Assembly: GCF_032062105.1 (NCBI RefSeq)
Contig: NW_026922157.1
Coordinates: 62,001 to 126,000, forward strand
Reading direction: 5' to 3'
DNA from: Saccostrea cucullata
Lineage: Eukaryota
Length of the DNA stretch: 64,000 nucleotides
Shown here: positions 12,631 through 53,500 of the stretch, in pieces
Layout of the letters: each line of letters starts with the position of its first letter
Position numbering within the stretch: position 1 is the first letter of the stretch
Notes under the pieces: generated by a model
What the model was told of the DNA's origin: nothing
Seen by the model: the letters and a program-made list of their open reading frames with translations, nothing else
Database searches by the model: none
Position numbers and translations under genes: made by a program

Positions 12631-15600
12631 TTACGATTTGCTGGGGACATGCCAGGTGAGCTCCTTTATTTCCTTCAGTTTGTCCGTGTGTTCATTATGA
12701 TGCACGAGCTCCCACTTCTTCATCCACGGTCCCGGCATAGTGATGTCAAACTCAGCATCTTCTGTATTCTGCTAGAGGGAAAATAACAAAAAGAGCAAGG
12801 AAATATTTTAACTTTGATTATTTAACAGTACTAGAGGTGAATATTTTCTTGAACCCGAGAAAATACCGGTACATGTAGGTATACGTGTACTGTAGATTTC
12901 TAAATTAACGCCTGGAATTAATTATCGCGTTATTTATTTTTATGGTGGTGACATCCATGTAAAATCTCTTGACCAACCATTCGCAAATTATTATTTTTGC
13001 AATTTGACGTTGAAGAGCCTATTCGCGATAATAAGAACTTGCGAAAAATTTATTCAAGTTTTTCAATAACAAAAAGTACACGTAATTGAAAAATGCACAA
13101 ATGTATACACTTCTTTTTGATTTATTACAGTTAGCCTGTCTAGGAACTTAGAATTTATCGATTTTACCGGAAGTATGTTTTGGAGGTCTTTGACTGATTC
13201 CTTCTGTTTAGCCCAGCGGTTATCCACTTCATAGCCTGTCCAGTCGATTTTATGGTTGGGATCCTTGGACGTCCGAAACAGTAGAAGGTCCTTTATACCA
13301 TAAAATCCGCAGGGATAACCTGGTTTTTGCCAACGAAGATCAAGGCTCCAACGGATCTCTTTTGACAAATTCGGCAAGCTGAATATTGAACAAATGATAA
13401 ATATAGTAAATGTGGCCGCAGTGTCTGTTACTTTACTCTATTCAAACTTGAACAACTAAGACAAATACGATATAGCGGGTCATCTTGGTGGGTTTAGAAT
13501 TTGGCATTTTGCCAACTGAAAGGTATGCCATATAATTTTGGCGTTATTTATTTTAGCGGTCGCAGGGTTTAGGCTCTTTCCATGCAGATGGACGCTAAGA
13601 AGAGTACTGACTATTTTAATAATTAAAAATTTTAGCGGACCACCATCAAAATGCCAAATAAAGCCAAAATAAGCATCCTGCTAAAATATACACGCTATAC
13701 GGTAACAATTATTCAACATGGATATGTAAAAAAAAAAAAACCACCAACAAATTCTATTCTATGGAATGAAAACGATTTACCTTCTGTGAGGTATCATATT
13801 GTTTAGCAGTAACATTCCTCCATAGGGAACTTCACAGGTAACGATGTCTTTGTCCAAATCTACTTCTGTTGAAACAAAATTTCCAAAATTTTAAGGGATG
13901 TAATATATACCCGGTATATTATATTTTACAAATATTATTACAACATGTATATCTATTTATTCAAATAAACCTTGTCTGAGTGGTACTAGTACATGTAACA
14001 AGACTTAACCTAATGTTTTGGCCATCTCCTCTTCCTCCAACATGACATACCAGGTATTTCCATAACAACACTGATGGTGAGCAACTTTACCAGTCTTGTG
14101 ACCTCTGTGTGCAACCTTAATTAGAAGAGAGCAAATGCCTTTACATACTAGTAATTGGCGACATTGAATACTTACAAATGACGCTATATAAAGCAAAGTC
14201 GCTTTATCACTACCTGCATGCATCCATTCTGAGCATTGGCGTCTAAAAGAGGGATCCATGCCGTAGGTTGGTGGACTTTGTACGAATCTCTATCTAAATA
14301 GCCAGAATCTATAACAAAATAATGAATCATTTTATTATTTTAATAATTTTATTTTGTATATTCCATGATTTGTGCAGATGGTCAAATATTCATTTATCAT
14401 GAAACTGGCACAAATATTGGTTCTTGGTTGATATGCCAATATCTATCATTACCCTGATGCCAAGGAACTGTTGTATTTTACAATATATGGAGAGAGGACC
14501 AATCAGCTGCTCCACAACGTTCAACAAACGCTCATTGGTCCAAACATCTTTAAAGGCCTAAATATTTTTGACACACAGAAATGTTAATTTTTCTTGTTAT
14601 TTCAGAATTGTAAAAATATTATTAAGGAATGATAACCCTTTTTTGGCGGAAAGGTTAAACTAACTGTGCCCTGAACATTATCATATGATAATATATATTA
14701 AGACAGGTCCCAAAACGTATGCAGATATGATAATCTATTTTCTATATTTAGTGACTTAAGTATTCAGTTCATCTTTAGTCTGAAAGCAAAACTAATTTAA
14801 AACCTATGAGTTAAATAAAAAGAAAATTTACGACTTAGTTTTTTTTATATCACAATTGTGATCGATGCATTACAGTTCTTCGTCTAGGTATACCGATGTT
14901 GAAAATTTTTTGAAGCATTTTGTTTTAATGTGCTTAATTTTACTTCCGATGTATGTTTTGAATCAAATAATTTTACAATATATATAGAGAGAGAGGACCG
15001 TTTCACACCCAATCCAAAGTTCTTTTAAGACAGATAAATAGTACTGCGAGCAATGCAAAGAAGGTCTTAAGGCAATACTACAGATTAATATTAATCCATA
15101 CAAGTTACTTCGTGTGGGTGTCATGATAAAACTGATAGATACATGAGAAGAACCATTTTTGATGGTAATAGGAAGCCTCAATTGATTTCCTCCATGTTTG
15201 CTTGAAGAAATTTTTTCTGAAATAATACTTTAAAAGCCAGCACCCGTGTTCAGTACGATTTTGGAAATTTGTAGTTCTATATTTATCTCTCCCATTTTTA
15301 ACAGTCGACCCTATACTCTTGACTGTGATATCACACACAAGTAAACTAAACAAGTTTGTATACCTGTGGTAAAACTCCGTATTTGTGTAACATAATATTT
15401 GCGCCAGGAAAGTCTTCTTCAAGCTTAGACAAGCGTTCAAAAAATCCGAACTCACTGTAGAGCGCTAAAACATAAAGTTTCATAATAAATCATGATAACA
15501 ATGATCCTATATTCTGAGAAAGAGATAAAGAGAGAGTTGCTTACACGTTGCTTACATTTGATTCGTCCAGATTCGTATAATTTTTGAGCCAGCAGATCAA

Positions 15601-16854: not shown

Positions 16855-17570
16855 GCGGTAATGTGTTTATTTTTGCCTTGTACATTCACTGTGATAACAT
16901 CTTTTACATTTTGACCTTGACCTTAGAGTTTAACCAACTTAAAAAAAAATCTTTTTCAAATACAAATAAAATATGTTGGTACTCAAATTACCGTCTCATA
17001 AGAAACGCACTTGTGAAATATGAATGCCGTAGTGCTGCTTGTTCAAATGCTGAAGTAAATGTTAATTTAAAAAAAAAATAGGCCAAGGGCCAAATATGTT
17101 AGTATCTAAAGGAAGGTCTTGTCACAATGATTATATATTTGAAGTAAGAAAGCTCCGGGCCAAATTGTTCAAAAGTTATGGAAAAAGTTGAAGTTTGTTA
17201 AAAATGGGTCAAAGGGTTAAAGTTAAAGTTCCCTGTATCCAGTTGAAGGTCTTGTCTCATGGATTACAAATATGAAATATAAAAGTTCTAGTATTTACTG
17301 TTAAAAATATATGGCCTAGGTTAATGTTAGGTAAAAGTTTGCAAAACTGAGTCAGACTCAAAGGTAAAAAAAAGTCAAATTTGCTGGTACCCCTAAAAAA
17401 GTCTTGTCACGAAAAATACACAGCTTAAATATGAAAGCAAAGCCCTAAAAATTGACAAAATTTTTGCAAGCAGACAGATTAAAAGACAGACAAAAAGACA
17501 GATGGATGGACATAGCAAAAACAATAATACCTTCACCCTGAATCTTTGATTATACGGGGGCATAAAAATC
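16855..17570 (-). mobile_element. Helentron/HINE-like non-autonomous element with ~150-bp internal repeats
   Basis: GGTCAA/CTTGTCAC units, a (GACA)n tract at ~17470-17510 and terminal CGGGGGCATAAAAA. Confidence 0.6.
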
Positions 17571-24794: not shown

Positions 24795-25105
24795 ACTGTC
24801 AACTCGTCGACCTGTCTACATGTCGACTTGTCAACCCGACTTCCCCTTAGCCAGTCGACTTGTCAACGTGTCGACTTGTAAAACAGTCGACATGTCAACC
24901 GGACTACCCTTTAGCCAGTCGACATGTCATCCCGTCAACCTGTCCATCTGTCGACCTGTCAACCAGTGCACCTGTCAATCAGTCGACGTGTCAACTCGTC
25001 GACCTGACAGCCGGTCGACCTGTCAACCCGTCGACGTGTCTATCCGTCGACTTGTCTACCAGTCGACCTGTTAATCAGAAGACCTCCAAACCGTCCACCT
25101 GTTAA
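24795..25105. repeat. low-complexity array of GTCGAC/GTCAAC-based short units inside a larger repeat (~23195-25335) with TTTCAGTGACC-rich ends
   Basis: Dense TGTCAAC/GTCGAC/CCTGTC reiteration; it explains ORFs 24820..25074 and 24860..25105. Confidence 0.75.
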
Positions 25106-25377: not shown

Positions 25378-26671
25378 CTAGAAATACAATTGCGAGTTAT
25401 AAAAGTTAAAGTTTTTCGTAATAACGGGAATCTGGTCAAGGTCAAAAGATCAAGGGAATTGGTGTCTAATGAAAGTTCTTGCCACAAAAAATACAAATGT
25501 GAAGTATAAAAGTCCTAGCCCTTACCCTTCAAAAGGTTAAGGTTAAAAATCAAAAGAAGTAGGTCAAGTCAAGCTCAAAGTGTCATGGGTCTTGTTATCA
25601 AATGAAACATCTTGTACAGTATGAAACACTAGCACCAAGCCATGAAAAGGTATCGTCAAGGTTTGCATTTTAAAAGTAGCCTAAACTCCAAGGTTAATAT
25701 CAAATGGCTAATGTTCTTGGTATGGGTCCTTACACAAGGATAACAAATTTGAAATGTAAGATTACTAGCCCTTAGCGTTCAAATGTTTTGGCCACGATTT
25801 TTTGCATAAGTACAAAAATCTTCAAGGTCATAAGGTCAAGGTAATTTGGTATCCAATGAAAAGTCATTTCACAATTAATACATATGCAAAGTATGGAAGT
25901 CCATTCCCTAATCGTTCAGAAGTTATAGCAAAAGTTAAAAATGTAAAGAAGTAGGTCAAACTCTAAGGTCATGTGAAAGGGCCAAAGTTCTTGGTATAAA
26001 ATGAAAGGTCATCTCACAAGGATTAAATGTGTAAAGTATACATTGTACAAACACTAGCTCTAACCCTTTAAAAGTTATGGTCAAGGTTTACTTGTTAAAA
26101 GAATGTCATACTCAAAGATCAAGGTCAAAGGTTCAAATTATTTGGTATCCAATGAAGGGTCTTCTCACAAGAATTACATATGCAAAATATAAAAGCCCTG
26201 TCCCTTACCCTTCAGAAGTTATGGCCAACGTTGAAGAGTTTTCATAAATACGGAGATCTCCGAAGTCAGGGTGAAAAGGTCAAGATTGTTGCTATCCATT
26301 AGAAGGTTTTGTCACAAAAATACATTTGTGAGGTTTAAATGCCCTGGTATTTACTGTTCAAAAGGTATGGCCAAAGTAAAAGTTTCAAATTTTTGTGTAA
26401 AAAGTGGTCAAACTCCAAGGTCAAGGTCAAAAGCTCAAAATATGATCTTTAAACATGGAATACACATTTTAATATGAAAGTCGTAGCTCTTCTAAATCTA
26501 CTAAAGGGCAAGGTTAAAGTTTCTTGGGGACAAACAGACAGAGAGGAAGACAGACAGCTAGACAGACAGTCAGACAAACAAACAACAACAAAAAAAAAAA
26601 CAGAAAGAAGGACGGACACGGCAAAAGCTACATGCATATACCACCGAAACTTCGTAATCGGGGGCATAAAA
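25378..26671 (-). mobile_element. Helentron/HINE-like element with about 7 tandem ~150-bp units
   Basis: Repeated AAGGTCAAGGTCA...GGTATCCAATGAA...CACAAG...AAAGTTATGG units, a (AGAC)n microsatellite at 26535-26580 and a CCGAAACTTCGTAATCGGGGGCATAAAA end. Confidence 0.7.
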
Positions 26672-26698
26672 TCAATTTTAGTTATATCTATATATGTA

Positions 26699-26955
26699 CG
26701 AGGGTTGTCCGTAAAGTTCGTGGACAAGCAAAAATTTAATGAAAGTTGAATCATTGATATTAATTATTAGCAATCTAATCCTTTAAATATGAATTGAAAA
26801 ATATGAAGTTTAATGCAATTTCAATTGTTTAATCATAATTATGACTTCATAATTTGAAATGAAAAATGAATTCAATGAAAATAATAGTTTATATATTTTA
26901 TCAATGTTTGTCAGTAATTATTAATGTTGTACACGAACTTCACGGACAACCCTCG
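26699..26955. mobile_element. Tc1/mariner-type MITE
   Basis: ~29-bp TIR CGAGGGTTGTCCGTAAAGTTCGTGGACAA with TA duplication. Confidence 0.88.
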
Positions 26956-27221
26956 TATATATTTGGTTTATCACATTTGATAATATGACGCCAAATATAA
27001 AAGATATGGGTACCGTGACATTACTTTTGGATCAACCCTTGTACTATAGTGGTATACGTGTTGGCCATCAAAACTTAGAAATAAGGAAACTTAATGTCTA
27101 TGCACCCCTTAATCTCACGTACCAGTAATCTGCATTGTTATTGATAAACAGTCAATGTTATTTAAACAGTCCATAGAAGGTTCAACAGTTATCAGGGGGA
27201 GACTTTCTTATTTTGTCCCAA

Positions 27222-27610
27222 TTTTTATGCCCCCGTAAGCAAAGTTTTGGGAATATATAGATTTTTTCGTGTTCGTCTGTCTGTCTGTCCAGCGGCCTGA
27301 CCGTCTGTCTCTCTGTTTCCGAAAAAAATTTAAGCTTGCCAATAACTTTTGATTTAGTGGAGCTCTGACTTTCATATTTCAGATGCATATTCCTTGTGAC
27401 AAGTCCCTTCTTTGGGTATCACCAAATTTGACCTTTTGACCTTGACCTTGGAGTTTGTCCCATTTTAATACAAAAATTCCAATCTTTTATTTGTCCATAT
27501 CTTTTGAACAGTATATACTTTATAAAGTAGATGAATTTAATACTTCATACATGAATATTTTGGTAGCAAGGCATTTCATTGAGTACAAAATTTTTTTACC
27601 TTTTGACCTA
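27222..27610 (+). mobile_element. Helentron/HINE-like element fragment
   Basis: TTTTTATGCCCCCG start, a (GTCT)n tract and TTGACCTTGACC units. Confidence 0.6.
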
Positions 27611-28083
27611 AGCACTAATCTAAGAAAATTGAAGTCAAGGTGAAAGTAAAGGTCAAGGTAAAAAAAAGCTGATGTAGTTGACTAGCTCTCATCAGTATGT
27701 ATTAGCATATGAAGTTTGATGAAAATATCTTAAATGGTATCTTTAAAATTGAGCTAAACATGAAATAAAGAAAATTGAGATCAAGTTCATTGGAAAGCTC
27801 AAGGTCAAAAATGGTGATGTAGTTGAAAAGCTCTCATCTGTATGTATCAACATGTGAAGTTTGATAATACTATCTTTATTGGTATGTATAAAAGTTTAAA
27901 AATGAGCTAAATACTAATTTGAGAAAAGTTAGTTCAAGGTCAAAGGAAATGTCAAGGTCAAAAATAATTAATGGATTTAAATGGCTCTTGTCAACATATA
28001 TATACCAGCATATGAAGATTGATGAAAATATCTAGGATAATTTTTTTAAACTGAGCTTTGAACTGAGCTAAAGTGTGATAGAA

Positions 28084-28451
28084 TGTAGCGGGACCGAGCG
28101 TGCAGTCCTTTTTGCTATTTTAAAATCCTCCTTAGAATTAATTAAATTCCTCCTTTGGTAGCGTAATAAAAATTCCAGTTATAAGTTTACGAGTTTATTA
28201 CATGTTTTAATAAATAATCACAATCTCATTATGTACAAGTAATCCAAAATATAAGTTCACAAATCGTTAATCCACTTAAACTCTGTCTATCACTGACTGT
28301 CTCTATCTCTCCTATCTAACCCCAAGCACGTGTGCGTGCACGCCCTATATATACATGTGAGGGGCAGCTCCGGTGGAGCTGCCAATACACAGCAGCTACC
28401 GGGGAGCTGCCGCTCTGCGGTCGATTACATAATATAAACAAATACTTTACA
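28084..28451 (-). repeat. 3' LTR
   Basis: 368-bp direct repeat of 31582-31949, adjacent to the PPT; TATATATAG and AATAAA on the minus strand. Confidence 0.95.
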
Positions 28452-28670
28452 ACTCCCCCCGGCTAAGATTTTGACCCCGTTCAAAATAAATTATCGAAAC
28501 AATACAAACATAGTATCATACAAAATAAATATTTACATACAGTTAAGAATCAAGAAATTAGTTTAATTAACTGTTAAAAAGTTCAAGTTTTTAACAGCAG
28601 TCACTGGTTGAAATCTCCGTAGACGTTTCTGTCTCGGTGGCACTGGAAATGAATCTAAACTTATAATTTC

Positions 28671-29060
28671 CTAGGATTCGTCCTCAGTCTGCTGCTTTTC
28701 AATTATTTCCTCATCTGATGAAATGTCCTCAAGTTCGGGCGCATACACCGGCTGTGGTTGGACATTTGTTGCGACATCAAGCGATTCCTCGTCAGACGAT
28801 ATATCTTCATACAACGGGACGTAGACTGCTTTCTGATTTTTCTTCAGATCTTCTCTGCGTAATTCTTTACTACTCGCCATTGTCGTTTCACTTTGTCCAT
28901 GCACACGTTTCAAATGTTTCTTTAAATTAAATTTCCTGGAAAATGGTCTTCCACAAAAGTCACAGTAAAATATACTAACACATTCACTATGAATTTCCTT
29001 ACAAAGTTGTTTAAGCGTTTTTCTATTCGTAAAAACTTGTCCACATATATCACAAAGCAT
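28671..29060 (-). CDS. env-position accessory ORF of the Gypsy element: 2 C2H2 zinc fingers + acidic repeats (probably once extended to 28563)
   Basis: CDICGQVFTNRKTLKQLCKEIH (degenerate), CDFCGRPFSRKFNLKKHLKRVH and two EDISSDEE motifs. The ATG is directly preceded by CAG, ~30 nt after the pol stop. Confidence 0.75.
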   Translation of the reverse strand: MLCDICGQVFTNRKTLKQLCKEIHSECVSIFYCDFCGRPFSRKFNLKKHLKRVHGQSETTMASSKELRREDLKKNQKAVYVPLYEDISSDEESLDVATNVQPQPVYAPELEDISSDEEIIEKQQTEDES

Positions 29061-29091
29061 CTGTATTCTTCTACATCCAAAAATGGTATGA

Positions 29092-31424
29092 TCAGTCTCT
29101 GAATCGGCACGGCACTTTTATAAGGCGCCCGCCCCTGGTCCGCGTCGAGTGTCTGTCTGGAGTTCGGGTATTGCGCATCTGACCTCTGTCGCGGTCTTCC
29201 CCTGCTGTAGCGCGGTCACTATCGGCGGCGTCCTTTGAACTTTGTTTTTTTCAATTTTGGCGATTTCTTGGAGTCCTCCTCATTAGAATCCTTTTGTTTC
29301 GGCACAGGGATATTATTAGGTTCTACAATCACTTGATCTTTAGTGATTTTCACAGTTTGATTCACCAATTTCTGTACATTGTGTTGTATTGTTTTTCTTG
29401 TGCGAAATGGCTTTAAATTGTCCGCATGCACAATCTTTGGTTTTGACGTTTTTGAGTGCTGAATTTGAAATAGGATATTACTTAGGCGTTTCAGAACAAC
29501 CCAAGGGCCAATCCAATTTCGGGACAGTTTCGTTTTTGTTCCCTTCTTCTGTTTAGGTTGGTAAAGTCGTACTACGCCGCCCACTTCATAATTCTTCTCA
29601 ATAATGTTCTTGTTATATTGTTTTCTTTGCGTTTCTATCGAAGATCGCGTTGTCTCCATGGCTAAATCATGCGCTTTTTCCATACTTTCACACAATTTTG
29701 TCACATATTCCGTATGACACTTTATATCCTCATTTTGAAAATCACTAAAATCACATAACACAGACACTGGAATTGTCATTTCACATCCAAATATCATACG
29801 ATATGGCGTTATTCCTGTGGTTTCGTGTACCGAAGTGTTGTACGCCATACTTACAGCATCTATGTATTTGTCCAAGTTCGTTTGCGGTAAGACACGAACT
29901 TTGATAACATTTCTTTGATGGTCCGATTGATTCTTTCTACCATCCCGTCTGATCTTGGATGGAAGGCTGTTGTTCGAGTTTTTGAGATACACATAATTTC
30001 ACAGAGTTGGGAAAATAACTGGCTCTCGAATTGACTTCCCTGATCCGTGTGAATTTCTAATGGACATCCGTAACGTTTTATCCATCCCCGAAATATAGCG
30101 TCCGCTAACTTTTCATGAAATGCCTCTTCTTTTTCTGTGGATTTTTCTTTTCCTCACAAATATGACACGATTTGACATAGTCACTGATATCACGATGAAA
30201 GTTAGGCCAATAATATGAACTTAAATCCGCTCTTTTCTTGGTTCTAATAATTCGTTGATGTCCAGAAATCGGCAAATCATGGAAATGCCACAACAATGCA
30301 ATTCTCAGTGATTTAGGTGTACAGATCCGTAAACTTATTGAATCATCCTGTATCCACTTGATACACAACACGCCCTCATGTATGGTGAGTAGTTTCCATC
30401 GTCCATACCAGAATCGACTCTCAGGGGGCATATGAAATAAAGCGTCAAATTTAGGCTTGTCTTTGCTCCCATATTTTTCAATCCAACTTAGAACAAATCC
30501 GATAACTTTGTCTCCCATCTGACTTTTTCGAAAACCAGAATATGTTAAGTCTACATCGGGCTCAGGTTGCGGCTTTGCTCGTCTTGGTCTATTTTCTGTT
30601 CGTCCTCTTCCTGTTGCCTGATTGTTGTCACTTTCATTTGTGTTAAACAAATAATGAATATCACATATAGCTTGGTCAATACACAAATCTGTCTCACACT
30701 GGTGTTTGCAATGTGACTTTCCGGGGCTCCGTCGTATTCATCGCCTAATTTTCTTTTGCATTGTCTGCAAACGGTCTCATCCGAAGTTACAGTGATTCTT
30801 GATAAACCGTCTGCATTAGAATGTCGTTTCCCTGCACGATGAACAATTTTAAAATCAAGCGGTCCTATTTGCTGTAGCCATCTGCATATCTGTCCGTCTA
30901 GCTCTTTGAATCTGTGTAACCAAGTGAGAGATCCATGATCTGTGCGTAACACGAATTCCTTTCCCAACAGGTAATGTTTAAAGTATTTCATAAAATAAAC
31001 TACGGCGAGCATTTCTTTTCGTGTAACACAATAATTTCTCTCCGCTGTAGTTAACAAACGACTCCCGTAAGCTATCACTTTTTCACCATGTTCCTGAATT
31101 TGGGATAGCACACAACCAATAGCACTTTTACTTGCATCTGTATCAAGAATAAAAATGACCAGCATTTGGATCTGGATATCCAAGAATTGGAGCACTCACA
31201 AGTTTTTCTTTCAGTGTATGAAACGCATGATCACATTCATCTGTCCATTCCCATTTTGTTTCTTTGCTTGTAAGCGTATGTAAGCATCTTGCTATTTTTG
31301 CAAAATCTTTAATGAATTTCCTATAATAGGACACTAATCCTAGAAAACTTCTTAACTCGCTCACATTTGTTGGTCTTGCAGCATTTCTAATTGCTTCTGT
31401 TTTTACAAGATCTGTTTTTATTCC
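29092..31424 (-). pseudogene. pol: Gypsy pol remnant: RT connection, RNase H, integrase (frameshifted)
   Basis: GIKTD...ELRSFLGLVSYYRKFIKDFAKIA, FILDTDASKSAIGCVLSQ, AERNYCVTRKEMLAVV, LRTDHGSL, HRAGKRHSNADGLSR, the HHCC region HFHDLPISGH...CHIC, MAYNTSVHETTGITPY, WIGPWVV, VHADNLKPF, and terminal TRGGRL..VPCRFRD*. Confidence 0.93.
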
Positions 31425-31581
31425 GAATTACACATTTTATTTGAATCACTTGATAAAAAGTATTAATCCAAACACATTCTCACAATCACGGAGAAGAAAA
31501 TAATAATAATCCAATGGAAATTAAATCCTTTCTTTTAACTATGGAATAACATGAATAACATCCCACCGCTGTGCCACCAGT

Positions 31582-31949
31582 TGTAGCTGGACCGAGCGTG
31601 CGGTCCTTTTTGCTATTTTAAAATCCTCCTTAGAATTAATTAAATTCCTCCTTTGGTAGCGTAATAAAAATTCTAGTTATAAGTTTACGAGTTTATTACA
31701 TGTTTTTATGAATAATCGCAATCACATTATGTACAAGTAATCCAAAATATAAGTTCACAAATCGTTAATCCACTTAAACTCTGTCTATCACTGACTGTCT
31801 CTATCTCTCCTATCTAACCCCAAGCACGCGTGCGTGCACGCCCTATATATACATGTGAGGGGCAGCTCCGGTGGAGCTGCCAATACACAGCAGCTACCGG
31901 GGAGCTGCCGCTCTGCGGTCGATTACATAATATAAACAAATACTTTACA
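31582..31949 (-). repeat. 5' LTR
   Basis: Direct repeat of 28084-28451, adjacent to the tRNA-Leu PBS. Confidence 0.95.
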
Positions 31950-32375
31950 ACTATGACAGAAGGACGGGTAGAAGACGGACATGACAAACACTACATGCCC
32001 CGGCCATATACATGGTGGGTCATAACTTAAAAATTAAAGTAGACTTTTAATCTTTGTTTTAATTTAACTCATATATGATATATGAGTTTTTCTTTCAGGC
32101 TAGAGATGCATTGATTGCTTAAGTAACTAAATATATAATATAAATAATAGTATCTGCATAGTTTTTGGACCTGCCTTAATGTATATATCATTATACTAAC
32201 AGTGCTAAGAACCTATCATACGATATTTTATATCGTATGATAGGTTCTGGGCACTGTTAGGTATAACTCTCCGCCAAAAGGGGTTATAATTTATATAATT
32301 TAAGGCTTAATTTTATTTTTACAATTCTGAATAAAGAGAAAAAATATAAATTTTTGTATATCAAAAATAATAAAG

Positions 32376-34195
32376 GCCTTTAAACTGTTGAAGATATATG
32401 GACCAATGAGTGTTTGTTGTACGTTATGGAGCAGTGGATTGGTTCCGACAATGCCGGGCAACCAGTTTGGAATCTGCGCACTAAATCACCCAAAACGAGG
32501 CTACAACAGTTCCTTGGCATCAGGGTAAAGATGGATATTGGCAAAATTCAGACCAAGAACTTATATATTTCACGGAATTGTCCTGATAAATGAATATGTG
32601 ACAGTCTTCACGAATCATGGAAAATGCACAACTCATCTAAAATAAGTTAAAATTATTAAAATAATAAACTGATTCATTATTTTGTTGTAGACTCTGCGTA
32701 TTTGCGTCAGGAATCGTAGGAATGTTCTCCAGCCTGCGGTATGGTTTCCTCTTCTAGACGCCAATGCTGAGAATGGATGCATGCAGGTAGAGATAAAGCG
32801 ACTATCCTTCATAGAGAATCATTTATAAGTACACAACTTATAGCATATTAAGGAATTTTCTAATTCAGATTGCACACAGAGGTCACAAGACCTTGTATCT
32901 CATGTTGGAGGAAATGGCCAAAACATTAGGTTAAGTCTGATTCCATCAGGCAATATTGCTTTTGATAAATGACCAACATATATTTAGTAAGCTATGACAG
33001 AATCTGTTAAAATATTGAGATTTTTGTTTCAACAGAAGTAGATTTGGACAAAGACATCATAACATGTCCAGTTTTCTTACGGTGGAACATTACTGTTGAA
33101 CAATATGATATACGGAAGGCAAATCGCTTCTATTTCATAATGGTCAGTTTGTTTCTCTTTACTCAAAATGGATAAGTGCTATTTTACATAAAAGTTAAAC
33201 TTCATAAAATATATATACTGAAACGCAACACCCTACTTCAGGGGGAATAATTATGTCAAGTAAAGAATTTTGTACCTTTAAATTATGATATCTTCAATTT
33301 GGTAAATATCGGTAATTTAACGGTTGAAAGATTTTCATACCTTAACCGGAAGTCAAGTTTGAGCCTGCTTACCGGAAATCAAAAATTGCATGTTTAACAA
33401 AACATTTGGCAATGATATGGAGTTTTAAGGGTTTGTACTGTTCATCATAAGTAATGCAGCACTATTTCAAAAAATAGATTCTCCTTTAGTTTCCCGTAAC
33501 GATGCAAAGGCTTCTTGAAAATGGCTTAATTACACATTTCCATTGCTCTAGCTGGAAAATTTCAAAAGTAAAGTGATGGGGAGTTGCTGATGCAAAACAT
33601 CACTACATTACACCTCAACAGGATCTTACGTATCATATGCATTAATGACAGTCCTTGGACCGGAAGTCCAAGGGTTAATACACTGCGCTAAGTTAGAGAA
33701 AATTCGACCTAATCATCTGAAAAACAGGCATTTAAAAATGGCAAAGAACAATTCCTTCGCTGAGATCTCAATATTGATGAACCTACTGTATCGTAGAAAT
33801 TAAGCTGCAAGTGTTGTTTAGGGCAGACTTGCACGTTTTAATTGAATGGCTGCGAGGGGGGGGGGGGTTAACAGGCATATGCTACTTAGTAAAGTAAAAA
33901 GATATACATTTAACATTTTTTATCAAATCTCTGATGTTCTGAAAAGCGAGTTTATCCTTACTGTATTCACTTTTGGAAATCGTTAGATAAAAAATTAAAA
34001 CATTTGTAGATTGATGCTTGTTGCGTTTTTGTTTTTTTTTTGCGTGTCAGTAGACAAGTAGGGCAAATACACATAATCTATTGGTTGAATATTTAGCCTG
34101 CCGAATATGTCTGAGCAGATCTGTTGGAGTCTTGATCTCCGTTGGCAAATACCGGATCATCCCTACAGATTTTAAGGCTATAAAGAACCACCTAG
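32376..34195 (+). pseudogene. decayed, partial, inverted paralog of the PhyH-family gene (exons 4-8)
   Basis: Exon relics at 32376-32524 (PVWNLRTKSP..ATTVPWHQ), 32691-32786, 32869-32929, 33036-33118 and 34097-~34195, with stops, deletions and frameshifts. The flanking intron 32050-32375 aligns to 14560-14830. Confidence 0.9.
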
Positions 34196-35613: not shown

Positions 35614-36957
35614 TCATGATGAAATGCCAAATACACTTACCATTACGTTAATTACAACAGCAATAAAAACAAGAGCCATTATAGCATTGTTAAGTCTGTT
35701 ATAACGTTTTTTGTCCTCTATAGCTTCTTCAATGTTCGCCAAAGCTAAAAGTAAAAACCCAACAGTGATCTGCACTAGAAAAGTCAGTATCAGCAAAACA
35801 AGCAAGATATGGAAGTACTGGTATGACACCCCTCGGTCAAATAGGGACTTGAGCTGCGATGCATTGGCCACCAACAAACCAATATCTAGAAGGCCTTCTG
35901 CCACTGTTTTCTTCCGTTCGTGCACACTTGTGCTCTTTTTTGTTATATTCTGAAAAAAAAATGATAATATTATTTTTTTCTGTCTTTAATAACAACTGTG
36001 TTGTCTCTACTAACAGATATGTTAATTTGGCATTTTTTGTTTGTCGCTGATACCTAGGGGAGTCTGGAAAAAAGAAAGCCACCTTCCCCTTCATCCTGGC
36101 TTACTATTTTGACATCATATATTGTAAAATACGAAATATGATAATGTACGGTTCTACCCAATCATGTTATTCCTGCCTATTTACGAAAATAGAAAGATAA
36201 CAAACAACATAATCAACTCAAAATGTCCCCTGGAAAAAGACACCTTTACATGTACATATATTGGCAACTGAACAAACAAATACTTCAGAACTCATTGAAA
36301 AAAGGAACAAAGTGCTTTGGAGGAGTAAGCATCCCCTGCAAATTGGTCACACCTATTGTATGGTCTTTATCATGATCGAGTTAAATTTGAAAAATCCGGA
36401 GATAATTTAATGTAAATATAACCGCTTAAAAATTAAGTGAAAATTGTAAGTCTGAGTCAACATTAAACGTAATGATCAATCAATTGTACATGATTGTATA
36501 CTGTGGAATCACAAATTTTCATGTTGGTTTGATTTTCGTTGTTTTCGAAGTATGAAGAGACCAACGAATTCATGTCCACCACGAAATGTAAAATGTTACA
36601 AACATAACCAATCACCAATTTTACATCCACGAAATCAAATCCCCACGAACCAAGAGTTTTTACTCAAACCACGAAAATTTGACCCCACGATAATATGTGA
36701 TTTTACAGATATGTGTTTTTGCTATCGTTGGAATATCTGATTTCTTTTCTGAATAGTACATACTTCATCCCCACAATAAAATGGTTTTCTATATGAACCG
36801 GTCACATTTATTGGTAATTTGGGAATATAAAAATAATAATAATAAAAAAAAACCTGATATTAAGAAGAGGTCTTACCAGTACCGTATAGTTGCCATTTTC
36901 TGTAGATTCGCCGACTTCTCCGACTTTTTCGACTTCTTCGACTTCTCTCTCAGACAT
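35614..36957 (-). CDS. ninjurin family protein, 138 aa, intact
   Basis: Exons 36957-36877 and 35949-35614 (phase 0, GT-AG). It has the KKTVAEGLLDIGLLVANASQLK signature plus two hydrophobic helices ending LNNAIMALVFIAVVINVMVSVFG. Confidence 0.92.
36285..36400 (-). mobile_element. Penelope-like 3' UTR fragment in the ninjurin intron
   Basis: The reverse complement contains CGATCATGA...GTGTGACC...GCAGGGGATGCTTACTCCTCC. Confidence 0.65.
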
Positions 36958-39101: not shown

Positions 39102-40611
39102 TCACACTGTCGAATTAGTTACAGGGTTTTTGAAAATGATCTTTGTTTGCTCTGAAATACCGAACACACTTATTATAACATTAATTATGATAGAAATAAA
39201 TACAAGTCCCATAACGGCATCGTCAATTCTGTTCGCACGTAACTCGTTGGCTTCATCCCCCTCTAGAGTTCCCATAAACAAAATCAACATCCCCACCGTG
39301 ATCTGTACTACAATGGAGAATATCAGAAAAATCAACACCACATAGTAGTACACCCCCTTGGCCCAATAATGCCTAGGTCACATTTCCCCGGTGGTAATCG
39401 TTGGTAATCCGTGATGTTAACGATGCCCTAACATCGGTCCACATCGGCCTAGTAGTCTTTACAGAATCAGTCACATTATCCAACGATGGGTATTCGATGG
39501 GTAACCAATGCCTTTTATGATAAAAATGTCGTGGTTGCCGGCCAGACTTTCATAGGCCCAGCGAAGCATTGCTAATCATGAAACGGTGTTCCAGGATAAT
39601 CGGCCGATGTATATTACATCGCTCATACATTGGTGAACATCGTTTGAACATCGGTTGACTACAGGCCAATGTTTGGTCGAACATCGACCAATGATCGGGC
39701 GTTATCTGTTGGACACCAGTCAACCTCCCGATGACTTCAGATTCAAGGGATATTGGACGATGCTCGGCCATACATCGGCCGATCCTTGAAAGATCTGTTA
39801 ATGGTGGGTTGCCCATGAGGAGCGATGTGAGGCATCTTTGGAGACATGGCTGAATTTTATCTACGAATTTTTTACTACCGATGACCCCACCGATTCGCAA
39901 AAAAGACTCAGTCACCATCTGATCACTAGTGGTGCCCGGCCGGCAACCAGGCCATTTTCATCACAAAACGCATCTTTTTCTCATCGTATATCCCATCGCT
40001 GGATAATGTGACTGATACTTAAGCCTTTCAGCTGAGAGGCGTTGGCGACCAATAAACCAATATCCAGAAGGCCCTCCGCCACTGTCTTCTTCCGCTCGTG
40101 CACGTGAGGGTCACTATTCTGTATAAAACATTTAAAAATATTATGGTATTTTTTGGTCCTTTTTTACAACTTGAGAGCTAATTTTTACAATTGGCTAATC
40201 TATTCGTATAAATCATGTGCAAAATGGCATAAACGAAGGATTTTCCTTCTTTGAAATATTTTTTCTCACTCAACGTACTGAACTTACACACAATTTTACA
40301 AGATATTCTTTAATGAAAATAAAAGTCGTATTAGATGTTCAGGGGTTTTGAAAAGATATGGTAAAAATATTCAAAAACAATATGCAAAAAATACTAAAAG
40401 TGTCCCCTAGAAGTTGTTTCATCCGATTTGTTTTTTTTAAATGTGTACATATATACAGACACCTACAGAGCACTTAGGCACCTCAAGTATTGGAACACTT
40501 CAACTCCACGTGGCGTATATGTCCCTAAACTTTTTAGTATATGTAAAGAAGCCAAACCTTTTCTGTAGATTTTTCAACTTCTGCAGGATTCTCGATTTCT
40601 TTGTCAGACAT
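39102..40611 (-). pseudogene. second ninjurin paralog, disrupted
   Basis: Exon 1 is 40611-40558 (MSDKEIENPAEVEKSTEK). Exon 2 starts at 40118 (VHERKKTVAEGLLDIGLLVANASQLKGL), is split by a 650-bp MITE and resumes at 39369. An extra ~8-nt deletion near 39353 shifts the frame before YYYVVLIFLIFSIVVQITVG. Confidence 0.88.
39370..40019. mobile_element. PIF/Harbinger-like MITE inserted in ninjurin exon 2
   Basis: TAA is duplicated at 39367-39369 and 40020-40022. Both ends have GTCACATT 7 nt from the terminus. There is an ~80-bp inverted repeat, 39466-39548 vs 39932-40019. Confidence 0.8.
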
Positions 40612-49726: not shown

Positions 49727-50514
49727 TCTCAAATGAAATATTATTTGCATTTGTATAAAAGGCAGTTAACTTAGATGACATGTCTATTTTACTATTTCAT
49801 TTATATACTGTCTGTATTTCCTCCAGAGAAGTGATTCTGTCGTGTATTTGTATGCAGATTCATTGAAAAAGTAACAGAAGGGCCCTATTAAATATATTAA
49901 TTGCAAGAGCATACTTTCAAGGTATACACATAAACTCAAGACGCATTAAGATTTTTGAAAAAAAAAGCTGCGAACCTCGTGAAGTCTTGCAAATAAATCC
50001 ATTATAGCTATATTTAATGTAGCTGACCAGCAAAATATCCAACCTGTCGTGCAACAAATTAAATTTTAACAAGTAAATAAGGGAATCTATATAGGTTTGC
50101 AGCACTTTCAAAAAGTACATATAGTGTTAAAAGGAATTTTAAATCAAACTAAGATTTTTAACCTAGCTATGCCCTTTCAATATTGGAATTTATAGACGAC
50201 CTTAAAACTGCAAGTATAATTGCTAAAATTGTGAGACCCCGACATCACGTGACAAGTCTGAATAAAAAATTAAATGTCCCCAACTTTAAGATTTGAATCA
50301 CAATAATACATTTTTTTTTACATATCAGTGAAGTCCTAAAAAGAATCGCCCATCGTCGTAAAGTATGTATATTTTATCTTAAAAAAGCGCCGATATTTCC
50401 ATTTGTAACCTTGACTGTACTGCATAATATGATATCTGTATTGCACTAACAGATTAATCATATGTTTCATTTTTATTTTGAAGAGGTTTTACAAGCGAAA
50501 AATAAACCTGAAGA

Positions 50515-53500
50515 ATGAATCAGTGGTTCTTCATTTGTGTAATGTTGACTAGCTCCACTTCCATTAAAATTATCCAATTGTTCACAGCTGAGGACAACGG
50601 AAATCTAAGTCATATGGTTCGGAACAATGACAGCTTGTTTGTTGGAGCCACAAACACACTATATCAATTCGACCTTAATCTAGACTTGGAAATCAAGATA
50701 ATCACTGGACCCCAAAATGACTCAAAGAAATGTGGAATTAACTTAGAGATGTGTTCGTACTTTTCCGAATTGTCACCGATTGACAACCATAATAAAATTT
50801 TGTTGCTTCATTCCGATAGGCTTGTGATATGTGGAAGTTTATTCCAAGGGAAATGTGAAATTAGAAATGTGAAGAACATAAGTGAAATTGTTTTCACTGG
50901 AAGCACTTCAGTGGCTTCCAATGAAGCAGATGTAAACACCATTGCATTTATTGCTCAAGTTCAGAATAGTGATACACAAAGAATGGAACCAATGATTTAT
51001 GTGGCAACTGAATTTACAAGGTTTGACAGGTCTAAGGATTTCATAGAATTTAGACGTAGACGATGGCATCCCCCAGTTATCACCCGACTATTCAATTTTT
51101 CACTTCGTGGAAAAGTTGCTTATGAATATGAATACAAATATGCGAAACCAGATTTAATATCATATGTTAATGGATTTTCTTCAGGAAATTACAGTTATAT
51201 TTTATTCAATGAGAAGGATCCAATTGATGGATCTCACAACACTAAAATTGTTCACATGTGTAGGATTGATGACCTATTGAGAACGTTTTTGGAAATACCA
51301 TTGATTTGCAAATCAAATAGCAAAACATATAAAAGTCTTAAGTCTGCAAAGCTATTCAAACCTGGACTGAGTTTATTGATATCACTGCAGGAACAGTTCC
51401 CTGATCTGACGTCAGAAGATGATGTCATTCTCGGACTTTTCAGTCATAGTTTAGACAGCAGTTCAGCTTTATGTATGTTTAGTATACCAAATGTGGAAAA
51501 AACAGTTCTAAGCAATGTTAAGACGTGTTTAAATGGAAGCACAGTATATGATGATTATAGAAGAAAATATAGAAATGGATTTCGATGCATAAAAATAGAC
51601 ATGGTAAGGATAAATAAAAAAAAAGAATATTGATACGAGTTGAGATACTATTTGATATAAAAATGAAAAATATTATTTTTTTCAAACCACTGTTTACGTT
51701 AAAAATGTTACTACGAGGGTTGATCCAAAATAATGTCACAACTTCGATAAAATTTCTCCTAGTCGACGTAAAATTAACAAATTTCACATGATTGAAGCTA
51801 TATTTATTTTAAATCTGTCCTGAAAAATTCAAATTAAAATGATTTATACTTTTCAAAATATCGAATTAAACACAAAGTGCTATTATGGTAGTCGCCGCAC
51901 CTAAATAACGTCATAAAACGGATATGCGCCGTCACAAACTATTAAAAACGCCTTCCCATCGTTTAAAAAAAAAATTGATATACACAAAACATTCACATTT
52001 TTTAATTTCTTTAAGAGCAATTGGCACCAATTGTACACTTTATCTATAATTTAACCCTTCATCAAAATTCTTTGAACAATACCATAAGACAAACTTAAAA
52101 GTGTCTTATATCACTCAAACTGCCACTAATCTCTTTTACGACAACGTCGACGCCACTGAACGTTTCCACCCGACCTCCTACCTTTCGATATTTTTGTCCC
52201 CAAATGATCATTTGTTTACCTATTACCCGCCCAAAATCTCTGAAACCATCTATGAACAAGTCTCGTTAACATTCTTTTCTCTGCGAGTTTGATTTACCAT
52301 CATAACTGTTTCTACTTGTGATTTCCCGATTTTGAAGGAAAAATACATTACAACTCGTTTCGGTGTTTTTTTTATTCCATTTCAACATTTCCTTTCTGCA
52401 ATACATCAGATATAAACAATACTGTTTATGATGAAAAAAAAACAATGCTGCCATTTAATTTTTAAGTAAAGATTAGAAAATGTCGTAAATTTTGTCTTTT
52501 AAAATATTGGACGATTAGACGATTTTTAGATGCTTTTCTTTATGTGTTTGTCTTTTTTTTCATTCTAACAATATTAACTTAAAAACGTGACGTTTAGTTG
52601 TGACGCAGCGACACCCCCTATGTTTAATGTTTTAAACATCTATAAAATGAATCCAATTGAAGATTATTAAATGAAATTTTCAATTTTAATTAGATTAATG
52701 TTTATGCATCTTTTGGTGCTTTATATTTGATAATATGACGCCAAATATTAAAGATATGGACACAGTGACATTACTTTTGGATCAACCCTCATATCTATAT
52801 TCTTTTGTCTTATCTTAATTAAAAAGCATATAAAGATAATTACTGACATTTGTATTGATCGTTTAGTTCTTACACACTTTTTAACAATCCAATGCTTTTT
52901 GCACGTGTTTCATAATATATTTTTATAATGTTTGCTTTACACTGTAGGCTTTTTTTACTGATGATGAGTTGGTGTGCTCAAATTACCTTCCTTTGCAAAA
53001 AGATTTGAAAACTCCAGAAATTGCTTCCCCAGTCATCGAGTTTCAAGCAGCAGAAAACCATTTTGAAACTTTGGCTATTACTATCACAGGAGACCACACT
53101 GTAGCATTTCTTGGAACCTCTAGTGGACATATCAAAAAGGTAGCATATATTGTACATTGAAAAAAACTACAACGATATTGCAATTATACTCATAAAGTTT
53201 CATTGCTGTCTTCCTTGAAAGACATTATACTTAGTTTAGGTATTTGATAGACTTTATGCTATTTCTGTTAAAGGTTTCATGCGAAAGTATGGAAAAGTAC
53301 TTTAATTATAAGACAGTAGGATTCTAGTAGCACTTTTCATTATCCAGATATTCTTATATGATTATATTAATTTTGTAACTAAAATGTTTAATCCCCGTGA
53401 TATTTTTGAGTAATAAAACCTTATGAAATGAGATGTGATGATAATTAACTAATTCCGAGTTTGGTGAGGGTTGGAGAATTCCTACCGATATAATTTCGAC

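Follow-up and report, generated by a model that had tools for sequence, protein, structure and literature searches.

Open reading frame 3 (ORF3), encoded in the env position of a Gypsy retrotransposon copy, is, by its sequence, a damaged member of a conserved and apparently undescribed family of proteins of 253–332 aa. In intact elements, we propose, with a probability of roughly 0.45, that its product would act as a regulator of the element's own LTR transcription, much as Tas does in foamy viruses. A candidate internal promoter, a candidate palindromic binding site in the LTR and the residues of the second zinc finger are consistent with this proposal, as set out below for the window, i.e. 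the whole 64,000-nt stretch of DNA that was analysed.

A deleted Gypsy copy and its damaged ORF3

The copy that carries ORF3 lies on the minus strand, has a total length of 3,866 bp and is an internally deleted, non-autonomous and dead derivative, in which the first coding sequence of the 3,130-bp internal region is the end of RT (Table 1). The assignment to LTR retrotransposons of the Gypsy type made by a first-pass annotation of this DNA holds: LTRs are paired, a primer-binding site (PBS) and a polypurine tract (PPT) are present, and RNase H precedes integrase in the Pfam matches, the order RT–RNase H–integrase being the one that defines Ty3/Gypsy. The LTRs (368 bp each, TG..CA ends) show 8 mismatches between them (K2P 0.022). 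The PBS is presumably that of a leucine tRNA; a similar PBS is given as Leu-tRNA in the excerpted text of PMC4558846. No target-site duplication was found at offsets 0–3 in a search for repeats of 4–6 bp that tolerated a single mismatch, which suggests a later rearrangement of the copy rather than a different element class.

Pfam matches and ORFs show that gag and protease are absent, that RT is represented by its end only, that the integrase core is partial and that several frameshifts have accumulated; the missing gag and protease and the greater part of RT would lie upstream of the connection domain. The first half of the integrase core is deleted near 30105, and the rve match to the remaining half scores under the curated cut-off. 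A frameshift must lie ahead of the pol tail because the long integrase frame already stops at 29219; the frame that ends at 29094–29092 is, we assume, similar to the usual Gypsy pol tail. An Rfam search of 28000–32100 gave no match.

ORF3 occupies the env position as first described, between the pol stop and the PPT, with its ATG at 29060 right behind a CAG. Two C2H2 fingers are recognised by Pfam (zf-C2H2, E=1.7e-9; score 38 bits, cut-off 25.2 bits), of which finger 2 is intact and finger 1 is degenerate, its first His missing in this copy, and both acidic motifs were recovered as quoted, starting at 28826 and 28748. The TAG at 28673–28671 is a sense codon at the same position in relatives, and the frame past it is indeed open for 35 further codons, to 28563. 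The protein of ~165 aa deduced from this frame, however, does not survive comparison with P0162 (267 aa), the closest intact relative. P0162 aligns over residues 1–134 at 61% identity, up to 28650, whereas the counterpart of its final 17 residues is read in another frame, at 28654–28601 (a score reached by 1 of 5,000 shuffles); ~116 codons, including the acidic helices and the C-terminal domain, have been deleted at the junction of the two. Stop-codon readthrough to a 165-aa product was rejected. The same holds for the monopartite nuclear localisation signal (NLS) proposed at PPRQKRLRR (28640–28614): its frame does not match the P0162 C-terminus (score reached by 3,507 of 5,000 shuffles) and is not the one common to relatives, no similar motif is found in P0162 or close relatives, and the stretch is an alternative reading of the true C-terminus DNA, a by-product of the deletion. 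No second copy of ORF3 was found in the window.

Table 1 Features of the ORF3-bearing Gypsy copy, in element order.
Feature	Position	Strand	Basis or remark
5' LTR, TGTA..TACA, 368 bp	31582..31949	-	compared with 3' LTR
U3 palindrome 1, imperfect	31889..31909	-	3' LTR counterpart 28391-28411
U3 palindrome 2, perfect 9-bp arms, 3-nt spacer	31861..31881	-	3' LTR copy 28363-28383
LTR TATA-like box	31844..31851	-	
PBS, probably tRNA-Leu type	31560..31579	-	sequence
End of RT / connection domain	31146..31424	-	Pfam RT_RNaseH_2 E=3e-7
RNase H frame	30554..31195	-	Pfam RT_RNaseH E=4e-32
Integrase zinc-binding domain	30141..30317	-	Pfam Integrase_H2C2 E=2e-15
Integrase core, second half	29863..30120	-	Pfam rve E=1.3e-4, match limited to profile positions 58-100 of 102
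Integrase C-terminal region	29219..29998	-	Pfam Integrase_p58_C E=2e-10
Frameshifted pol tail, GC- and CpG-rich	29092..29220	-	stop 29094-29092
Candidate internal promoter for ORF3	29085..29136	-	GC box + TATA + Inr-like; putative function
Promoter part, GC box	29134-29129	-	
Promoter part, TATAAAAG	29122-29115	-	
Promoter part, Inr-like site	A at 29089	-	
Minimal upstream ORF (ATG, then stop) in predicted leader	29071..29076	-	
Start of ORF3 with both C2H2 fingers, finger 1 degenerate	28899..29060	-	Pfam
Acidic motif copy 1	28785..28826	-	
Acidic motif copy 2	28707..28748	-	
Premature TAG	28671..28673	-	sense codon in relatives
Junction of frameshifting deletion, ~116 codons	28650..28654	-	two frames overlap by 5 nt
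True C-terminus remnant, different frame	28601..28654	-	P0162 alignment; stop 28603-28601
PPT	28453..28460	-	
3' LTR	28084..28451	-	AATAAA at 28199-28194

The ORF3 protein family

Eight full-length relatives, 31–94% identical to each other in pairs, share one layout: a pair of C2H2 fingers at the N-terminus is followed by a YEDISSDEE-type motif, by an acidic region containing two short amphipathic helices and by a C-terminal hairpin-helix domain. Both fingers are intact in all eight (C-x2-C-x12-H-x3/4-H), starting at residue 3–4 with constant spacing, and seven of the eight contain two acidic-hydrophobic motifs. Among seven proteins from four distant subfamilies, identity to P0162 is 39–67% around the motif, 35–51% in the fingers and 30–40% in the C-terminal domain, and only 13–24% in the acidic region and 0–15% in the linker. 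A tree of 12 family proteins resolves three close pairs and nothing else. The signature D[ILM]xSD[ED] is present in 19 of 22 family records versus 1 of 141 other retrieved proteins, a count in which membership was itself partly decided on that motif. The same short motif is also present in P0010, a 947-aa multi-finger protein without a name.

None of the 15 relatives with source data derives from NCBI or UniRef or bears a name; the P0162 cluster has 35 members, and several family relatives are broken, all of which speaks for a gene carried by mobile elements. Relatives of P0162 were not found in bacterial and archaeal genomes, where a scan with a degenerate motif returned 16 loci, none with the family (best HMM E=0.014, motif only). 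In the literature searched, which lay largely outside subscription journals and Repbase Reports, no paper names the family, and its peptide motifs are absent from the papers listed for them; the supplementary data of a survey of mollusc LTR elements (PMC6238403) could bear on how new the family is.

The two copies of the acidic motif are separated by 16 differences in 42 nt, of which 11 fall at third positions, and keep 11 of 14 residues, a conservation matched by none of 100,000 neutral simulations for motif boundaries picked by amino-acid similarity. By this comparison, the duplicated motif is under protein-level selection, which, along with the existence of a conserved family, excludes the initial worry that ORF3 might be a one-off captured fragment. 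The core SIM pattern, a hydrophobic core of V/I/L adjoining acidic residues, fits neither motif, and their earlier label as SUMO-interacting motifs has to be dropped; the single match to the pattern in the window protein, IISL, lies beyond the TAG, and a match just downstream of the motifs is confined to the close subfamily. As a matter of sequence, the motifs resemble the LSD motif of NCoR/SMRT only loosely, and titration of SUMO or corepressors by the ORF3 protein would be a guess.

The view that ORF3 does not encode an envelope protein is borne out by hydropathy: all eight proteins tested lack a signal peptide or transmembrane segment (maximum 19-residue Kyte-Doolittle mean 0.49–0.89), and an env function was rejected on these grounds. 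The observed/expected CpG ratio of ORF3 (1.18) is close to that of the integrase core and C-terminus (1.12–1.25), compared with 0.52 in one host exon; this argument for an element-borne ORF3 is weakened because the other pol pieces are lower, at 0.38–0.89.

The C-terminal hairpin-helix domain is conserved and appears to match no family in the searches run. Pfam has no family above cut-off outside the fingers, PHROG gave unconvincing matches to two families, each from one of five members (E 0.0095 and 0.057), and the domain matched neither PDB sequences (best E=0.2) nor the Atlas. An Atlas search with P0081 returned unnamed or generic C2H2 clusters only. The ORF3 protein model is weak overall (mean pLDDT 57.5). 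Foldseek against BFVD and PDB gave nothing at E<=0.001, and VIA-align of the C-terminal domain reached at best Z=4.0 with an rmsd of 4.8, an uninformative value on a model of pLDDT 59. The first-pass annotation had neither this domain, which the present copy has lost, nor the candidate promoter inside pol or the palindromes in U3.

Candidate promoter and candidate DNA targets

Expression of ORF3 by splicing to the CAG before its ATG, as had been suggested, was rejected on account of the poor acceptor context: the preceding 17 nt are 29% pyrimidine and contain two other AGs, and 93% of 1,463 YAG sites on the minus strand score as high. The TAG upstream (29073–29071) is middling as an acceptor (59% pyrimidine, a level reached by 32% of sites); this TAG, the better of the two weak acceptors, also ends the minimal upstream ORF. 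A GC-box/TATA/Inr internal promoter within the pol tail would fit ORF3 expression better than splicing to the CAG. Its pair of GC box and TATAWAWR is the single instance on either strand of the window, and 0.08% of 100,000 synonymous recodings yield both motifs, which were discovered post hoc and overlap pol codons.

The top PDB match of the ORF3 model is the complex of the two Tramtrack fingers with DNA (rmsd 1.6 Å over 55 columns, E=0.016). Over the N-terminal 55 residues, two-finger domains of the Tramtrack type give the best match in fold; beyond them, the protein, its C-terminal domain included, gave no family match in the searches run. Finger 2 carries Arg at position -1 and Arg/Lys at 6 in 12 of 12 proteins and Asn at 3 in 10 of 12 (13 were examined, P0002 being left out as this finger is broken). 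All three contact residues occur together in only 18 of 1,405 other retrieved fingers, a control set that was itself retrieved by similarity to the family. Related proteins also have residues in common through shared ancestry. The finger-to-triplet code is approximate; read with it, the contact residues of finger 2 suggest a GAG triplet. Those of finger 1 differ from subfamily to subfamily.

Two GAG-containing palindromes lie immediately upstream of the LTR TATA box, the second with GAG in both half-sites. Its 9-bp arms are rare by chance (6 of 1,000 whole-LTR shuffles, 4 of 2,000 local shuffles), and the 8-nt half-site occurs six times in the window, in the LTRs only. Palindrome 2 is, we infer, a candidate binding site for the ORF3 protein. 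As RNA, the U3 palindromes form a strong hairpin (z=-3.1) and may also work at that level.

Possible functions and known systems

In an intact element, going by the sequence statistics above, the TATA promoter in the end of pol would give a short ORF3 mRNA that depends neither on the LTR nor on splicing. By homology, its product is a soluble protein of 253–332 aa with two C2H2 fingers, DISSDE, acidic helices and the C-terminal hairpin-helix. The fingers would bind DNA, most probably at the paired U3 palindromes, where finger 2 would read a triplet like GAG, and binding may be as a dimer whose partners are held together by the C-terminal domain. The acidic helices and a phosphorylatable SSDEE could then recruit host co-regulators and switch on full-length transcription, an early-to-late switch, although the sequence does not decide between activator and repressor. 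The earlier reading of ORF3 as a nucleic-acid-binding regulator of the element remains the best one, while its particulars (length, NLS, splicing, SIM) fall away. The link of the family to Gypsy rests on this one locus. In a tentative extension that we hold possible, if on balance not probable, the env-less Ty3/Gypsy elements of animals would include an old, broad lineage with a sequence-specific C2H2 transcription factor of its own, which is made from an internal promoter of the pol tail and acts on palindromic targets in the LTR.

The protein could also be an anti-silencing factor or self-limiting repressor, which we consider unlikely. Here the fingers would tether it to element DNA, phospho-DISSDE would mimic the LSD motif of NCoR/SMRT, and the CK2-phosphorylated motif would capture or displace SPOC-domain (Spen family) proteins. 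This explanation shares promoter, product and DNA binding with the Tas-like one, and the acidic amphipathic helices, in our assumption, look more like an activation domain. In its favour, the DISSDE-type motif is the best-conserved part of the protein and the acidic motif is duplicated under selection; SPOC domains recognise phosphoserine within the acidic motifs LSD, LSETD and LPDSD, CK2 being the kinase for NCoR (excerpts of PMC10111866). DISSDE, however, is literally none of the three, and acidic CK2-type sites are common.

It is less probable still that the family is a host gene, or one of another mobile element, of which this Gypsy lineage captured one copy. The family is absent from the bacterial and archaeal genomes scanned, as an animal gene would be, the Gypsy context is seen at one locus only, the window holds a single copy and P0010 shares the short motif. 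Yet ORF3 has no intron and fits exactly between pol stop and PPT, a promoter-like signal is built into pol codons, and the 15 relatives with source data include no named host orthologue, many relatives being broken.

A Rev- or CERV-like RNA adaptor, whose fingers bind the U3 hairpin and whose phospho-motif recruits RBM15–NXF1-type export of unspliced RNA, appears improbable. The U3 region does fold (z=-3.1), the Ty3/Gypsy element Cer1 encodes the phospho-regulated export protein CERV (PMC10309623, in part), and the RBM15 SPOC domain serves viral RNA export (PMC10111866, in part). Against this, the residues at -1, 3 and 6 and the structural matches belong to readers of double-stranded DNA, RNA folding is expected of any DNA palindrome, and an ORF3 promoter of its own would leave little splicing to bypass. 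Gypsy elements often target insertion via add-on domains, and the architecture of a DNA-binding module plus interaction domain would permit an integration tether, whose fingers read a host sequence and which binds integrase through its C-terminal domain or its acidic motif, but ORF3 offers no positive evidence for this very improbable role. An ORF that is expressed separately, in an element with LTR palindromes that suit finger 2, is more in keeping with control of transcription.

Complex retroviruses are characterised by encoding transcription regulators of their own, and the accessory ORFs of animal LTR retrotransposons are mostly described, in the literature searched, as envelope, membrane, enzyme or RNA-export proteins. 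If ORF3 is a Tas-like regulator, an element-borne C2H2 factor would reverse the usual picture of host zinc fingers silencing retroelements; protein, promoter and binding site would form a compact circuit within 3 kb, and the domain at the C-terminus would be new. If the extension to an old, broad lineage holds as well, a circuit in the style of complex retroviruses would have evolved independently in retrotransposons, from the very protein fold that hosts usually turn against them. A DNA-binding protein produced by elements present in many copies might also act on genes of the host.

Foamy-virus Tas (Bel1) binds internal and LTR promoters and carries an acidic activation domain (excerpts of PMC517496; PMC7828637). 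Like ORF3, it is encoded by a retroelement as an accessory gene close to the 3' LTR and is linked to an internal promoter, a candidate one here; unlike it, ORF3 belongs to an env-less Ty3/Gypsy element and would bind DNA through classical C2H2 fingers. No Tas family was among the matches of ORF3 proteins in the Pfam, BFVD and PDB library searches. Among plant additional ORFs, gene 23 of Grande reportedly encodes a nuclear protein with its own promoter. Such non-envelope ORF3s resemble the present one in their env position, as do those of bdelloid LTR retrotransposons (DEDDy/GDSL/TM), extra ORFs downstream of pol described in parts of PMC5408684, in the text of which the words 'zinc', 'finger' and 'C2H2' are absent; the present ORF3 encodes no enzyme and no membrane protein. 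CERV of C. elegans Cer1 is likewise an accessory regulator from an animal Ty3/Gypsy element, nuclear and phospho-regulated, but this protein of 517 aa arises by splicing, has part of Gag in common, may contain a C4 finger and acts in RNA export (PMC10309623, in part), whereas the present ORF3 stands on the 3' side as a gene of its own and encodes C2H2 fingers. In some Tor elements of Oikopleura, an internal promoter transcribes the third ORF, according to portions of PMC4402516; Tor3b/4b thus share with our element a third ORF and an internal promoter, here a candidate, although their third ORF encodes a membrane glycoprotein (Env).

A zinc-finger gene family and its ruined copy in the env position of a Gypsy element

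From 163 proteins retrieved by homology search (three runs) and profile search (one run), 22 records of the ORF3 family were chosen by eye; the remaining 141 are mostly generic multi-finger proteins. The eight full-length members (253–332 aa, 31–94% mutual identity) show a common layout: two fingers at the N-terminus, a DISSDE motif preceded by a K-x-V-Y-V stretch, an acidic region of low conservation and, at the C-terminus, a domain of ~60 residues. Across subfamilies, conservation holds for the fingers, the motif and the C-terminal domain but not for the linker or the acidic region. The AlphaFold model built on 15 sequences (mean pLDDT 57.5) has the fingers (73–87), a disordered part containing two short helices, and a beta-hairpin with a helix (62–78). 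None of the sequence and structure searches run assigned the C-terminal domain to a known family. A 947-aa multi-finger protein, P0010, has the same short acidic motif as the family and is a possible host relative.

A genuine family therefore exists, apparently undescribed so far. Extra ORFs in the env position are already a known kind; a C2H2 ORF3 was not found in the literature searched, with Repbase, Dfam, subscription journals and supplements outside this scope. Term look-ups returned no mention of one in the portions covered of PMC13524379, PMC8220671, PMC6238403, PMC13269885, PMC2774666, PMC6431247, PMC5408684 and bioRxiv 2025.03.14.642691.

The window ORF begins 31 nt past the stop of a pol-tail-like frame, and contains the two C2H2 fingers, the first degenerate in this copy, and both acidic motifs that the first-pass annotation had described. 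Its closest intact relative, P0162 (267 aa, from a cluster of 35 members), aligns over residues 1–134 with 61% identity, reaching seven residues beyond the TAG, while its last 17 residues match positions 28654–28601 in another frame with a shared stop position. This 17-residue piece alone gives E=4.8 against the whole window; in a local test its score was reached in 1 of 5,000 shuffles, compared with 3,507 of 5,000 for the PPRQKRLRR frame. It follows that the window copy has a premature stop and has lost about 116 codons through a deletion that shifts the frame. It lacks the C-terminal domain and is a ruin. The ~165-aa protein proposed earlier is therefore an artefact, as is PPRQKRLRR as a nuclear localisation signal, whose frame fails the local match; the SUMO-interacting label for the two acidic motifs fails too. 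That the product is not an envelope protein stands, a transmembrane segment being lacking.

The two acidic motif copies differ at 16 of 42 nt, 11 of these at third codon positions, and nine of their 11 identical residues are encoded by different codons (pN 0.15; pS saturated). Neutral simulations of the pair never kept the 11 residues (0 of 100,000), a signal of selection that is strong despite motif boundaries picked on similarity. The motif also fits a CK2 consensus.

The Gypsy element and its surroundings

Pfam matches along the 3,866-bp element keep the Gypsy order and are spread over different frames: the last part of RT, RNase H, the zinc domain of the integrase, the latter half of its core and its C-terminal domain. 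The element, a non-autonomous deletion derivative, has lost gag, protease and most of RT. A target-site duplication was looked for at the element and none was found; the three bases preceding the LTR are nevertheless identical at both LTR copies. The left end may have originated by rearrangement or incomplete end processing.

Coordinates of the element and of other features in the window
Feature	Position	Strand	Description
Two LTRs, 368 bp each	31949–31582 and 28451–28084	minus	TGTA..TACA ends, 8 mismatches between them
Primer-binding site	after 5' LTR	minus	from sequence
G-rich tract	before 3' LTR	minus	from sequence
5' LTR flanks	31950–31952 and 31579–31581		stretch its inverted ends to 7 bp
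Window ORF start	29060	minus	
TAG in window ORF	28673–28671	minus	
Dispersed repeats	25440–28033, 17080–17434, 54600–57600		many; 145–170-bp tandem subunits, common ends; one array adjoins Gypsy 3' end
Inverted 1.1-kb repeat pair	32053–33139 and 13760–14825		66% identity; starts ~100 bp beyond 5' LTR; older element
Ninjurin ORF	35614–35985	minus	strong match (Pfam E=1.8e-25); probably host exon
373-codon open frame	50512–51633	plus	weak Sema-domain match (E=0.0018), low CpG; probably semaphorin/plexin-like host exon
Open frame	4318–4758	plus	weak PAN-domain match (E=0.002)
Degenerate array	24797–25100		16-bp units, GTCGAC-rich
GC-rich unit, 500 bp	39488–39993		56-bp imperfect inverted ends, MITE-like
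GC- and CpG-rich stretch	10261–10420		only other 160-bp stretch as rich in both as pol tail; within 155-codon open frame, no Pfam match

The dispersed repeats resemble the non-autonomous Helitron-type repeats of bivalves.

Expression of ORF3

Splicing to the CAG before the ATG had been suggested, yet this CAG is a poor acceptor; the upstream TAG is an average one. The pol tail, rich in GC and CpG (56% vs 38% for the element), contains a GC box, then TATAAAAG at 29122 and, 33 nt beyond that, an Inr-like site. The GC-box and TATAWAWR pair is the only one in the window on either strand, and the looser pattern TATAAA gives a second site elsewhere. Recoding the pol-tail peptide with element codon usage in 100,000 trials, a post hoc test of the motifs, reproduced both promoter motifs in 0.08% and the GC content in 0.02%; for the number of CpGs the result was unremarkable (12%). 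These features suggest that ORF3 may be expressed from an internal promoter in the pol tail. An excerpt of PMC4402516 describes a third ORF with an internal promoter in Tor elements, and one of PMC5408684 gives splicing as typical of ORF3s.

Candidate target and possible function

In finger 2, Arg-1, Asn3 and Arg/Lys6 occur together in 10 of 12 family members (the retrieved protein P0002 dropped) vs 18 of 1,405 other fingers, contact residues that we presume to specify GAG by the recognition code. Upstream of the TATA box, U3 carries two related palindromes, ending 38 nt and 10 nt from it; the nearer one has perfect 9-bp arms (6/1,000 and 4/2,000 shuffles) with GAG in each half. Since RNA folding is seen for this region as well (z=-3.1) and finger 1 differs between subfamilies, the putative match should be taken as a lead only. 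What is shown is the family, its architecture, the selection and the damage to this copy; use of the promoter, binding to DNA, the site bound, the partners and the direction of regulation are inferred.

We favour a product that would regulate the element's own LTR as Tas does, with a probability of about 0.45. Anti-silencing or repression via SPOC-type partners, as described in part of PMC10111866, is unlikely. That ORF3 is a passenger or host gene is quite unlikely: a single locus still provides the tie of family to element, but ORF3 fits exactly between the pol stop and the polypurine tract, is intronless, has promoter motifs within pol codons and resembles the integrase region in CpG content. 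Also counted for an element-borne origin, none of the 15 relatives with source data is named or in NCBI/UniRef, the relatives form multi-member clusters, and several relatives are broken; the family is probably a genuine retroelement gene family. RNA export of the CERV type, as outlined in an excerpt of PMC10309623, is somewhat less likely than the passenger or host-gene reading, and an integration tether is the least probable of all.

The preferred reading, an LTR regulator, likens the ORF3 product to foamy-virus Tas, which, according to the part of PMC517496 consulted, binds the internal promoter as well as the one in the LTR and whose activation domain is acidic.
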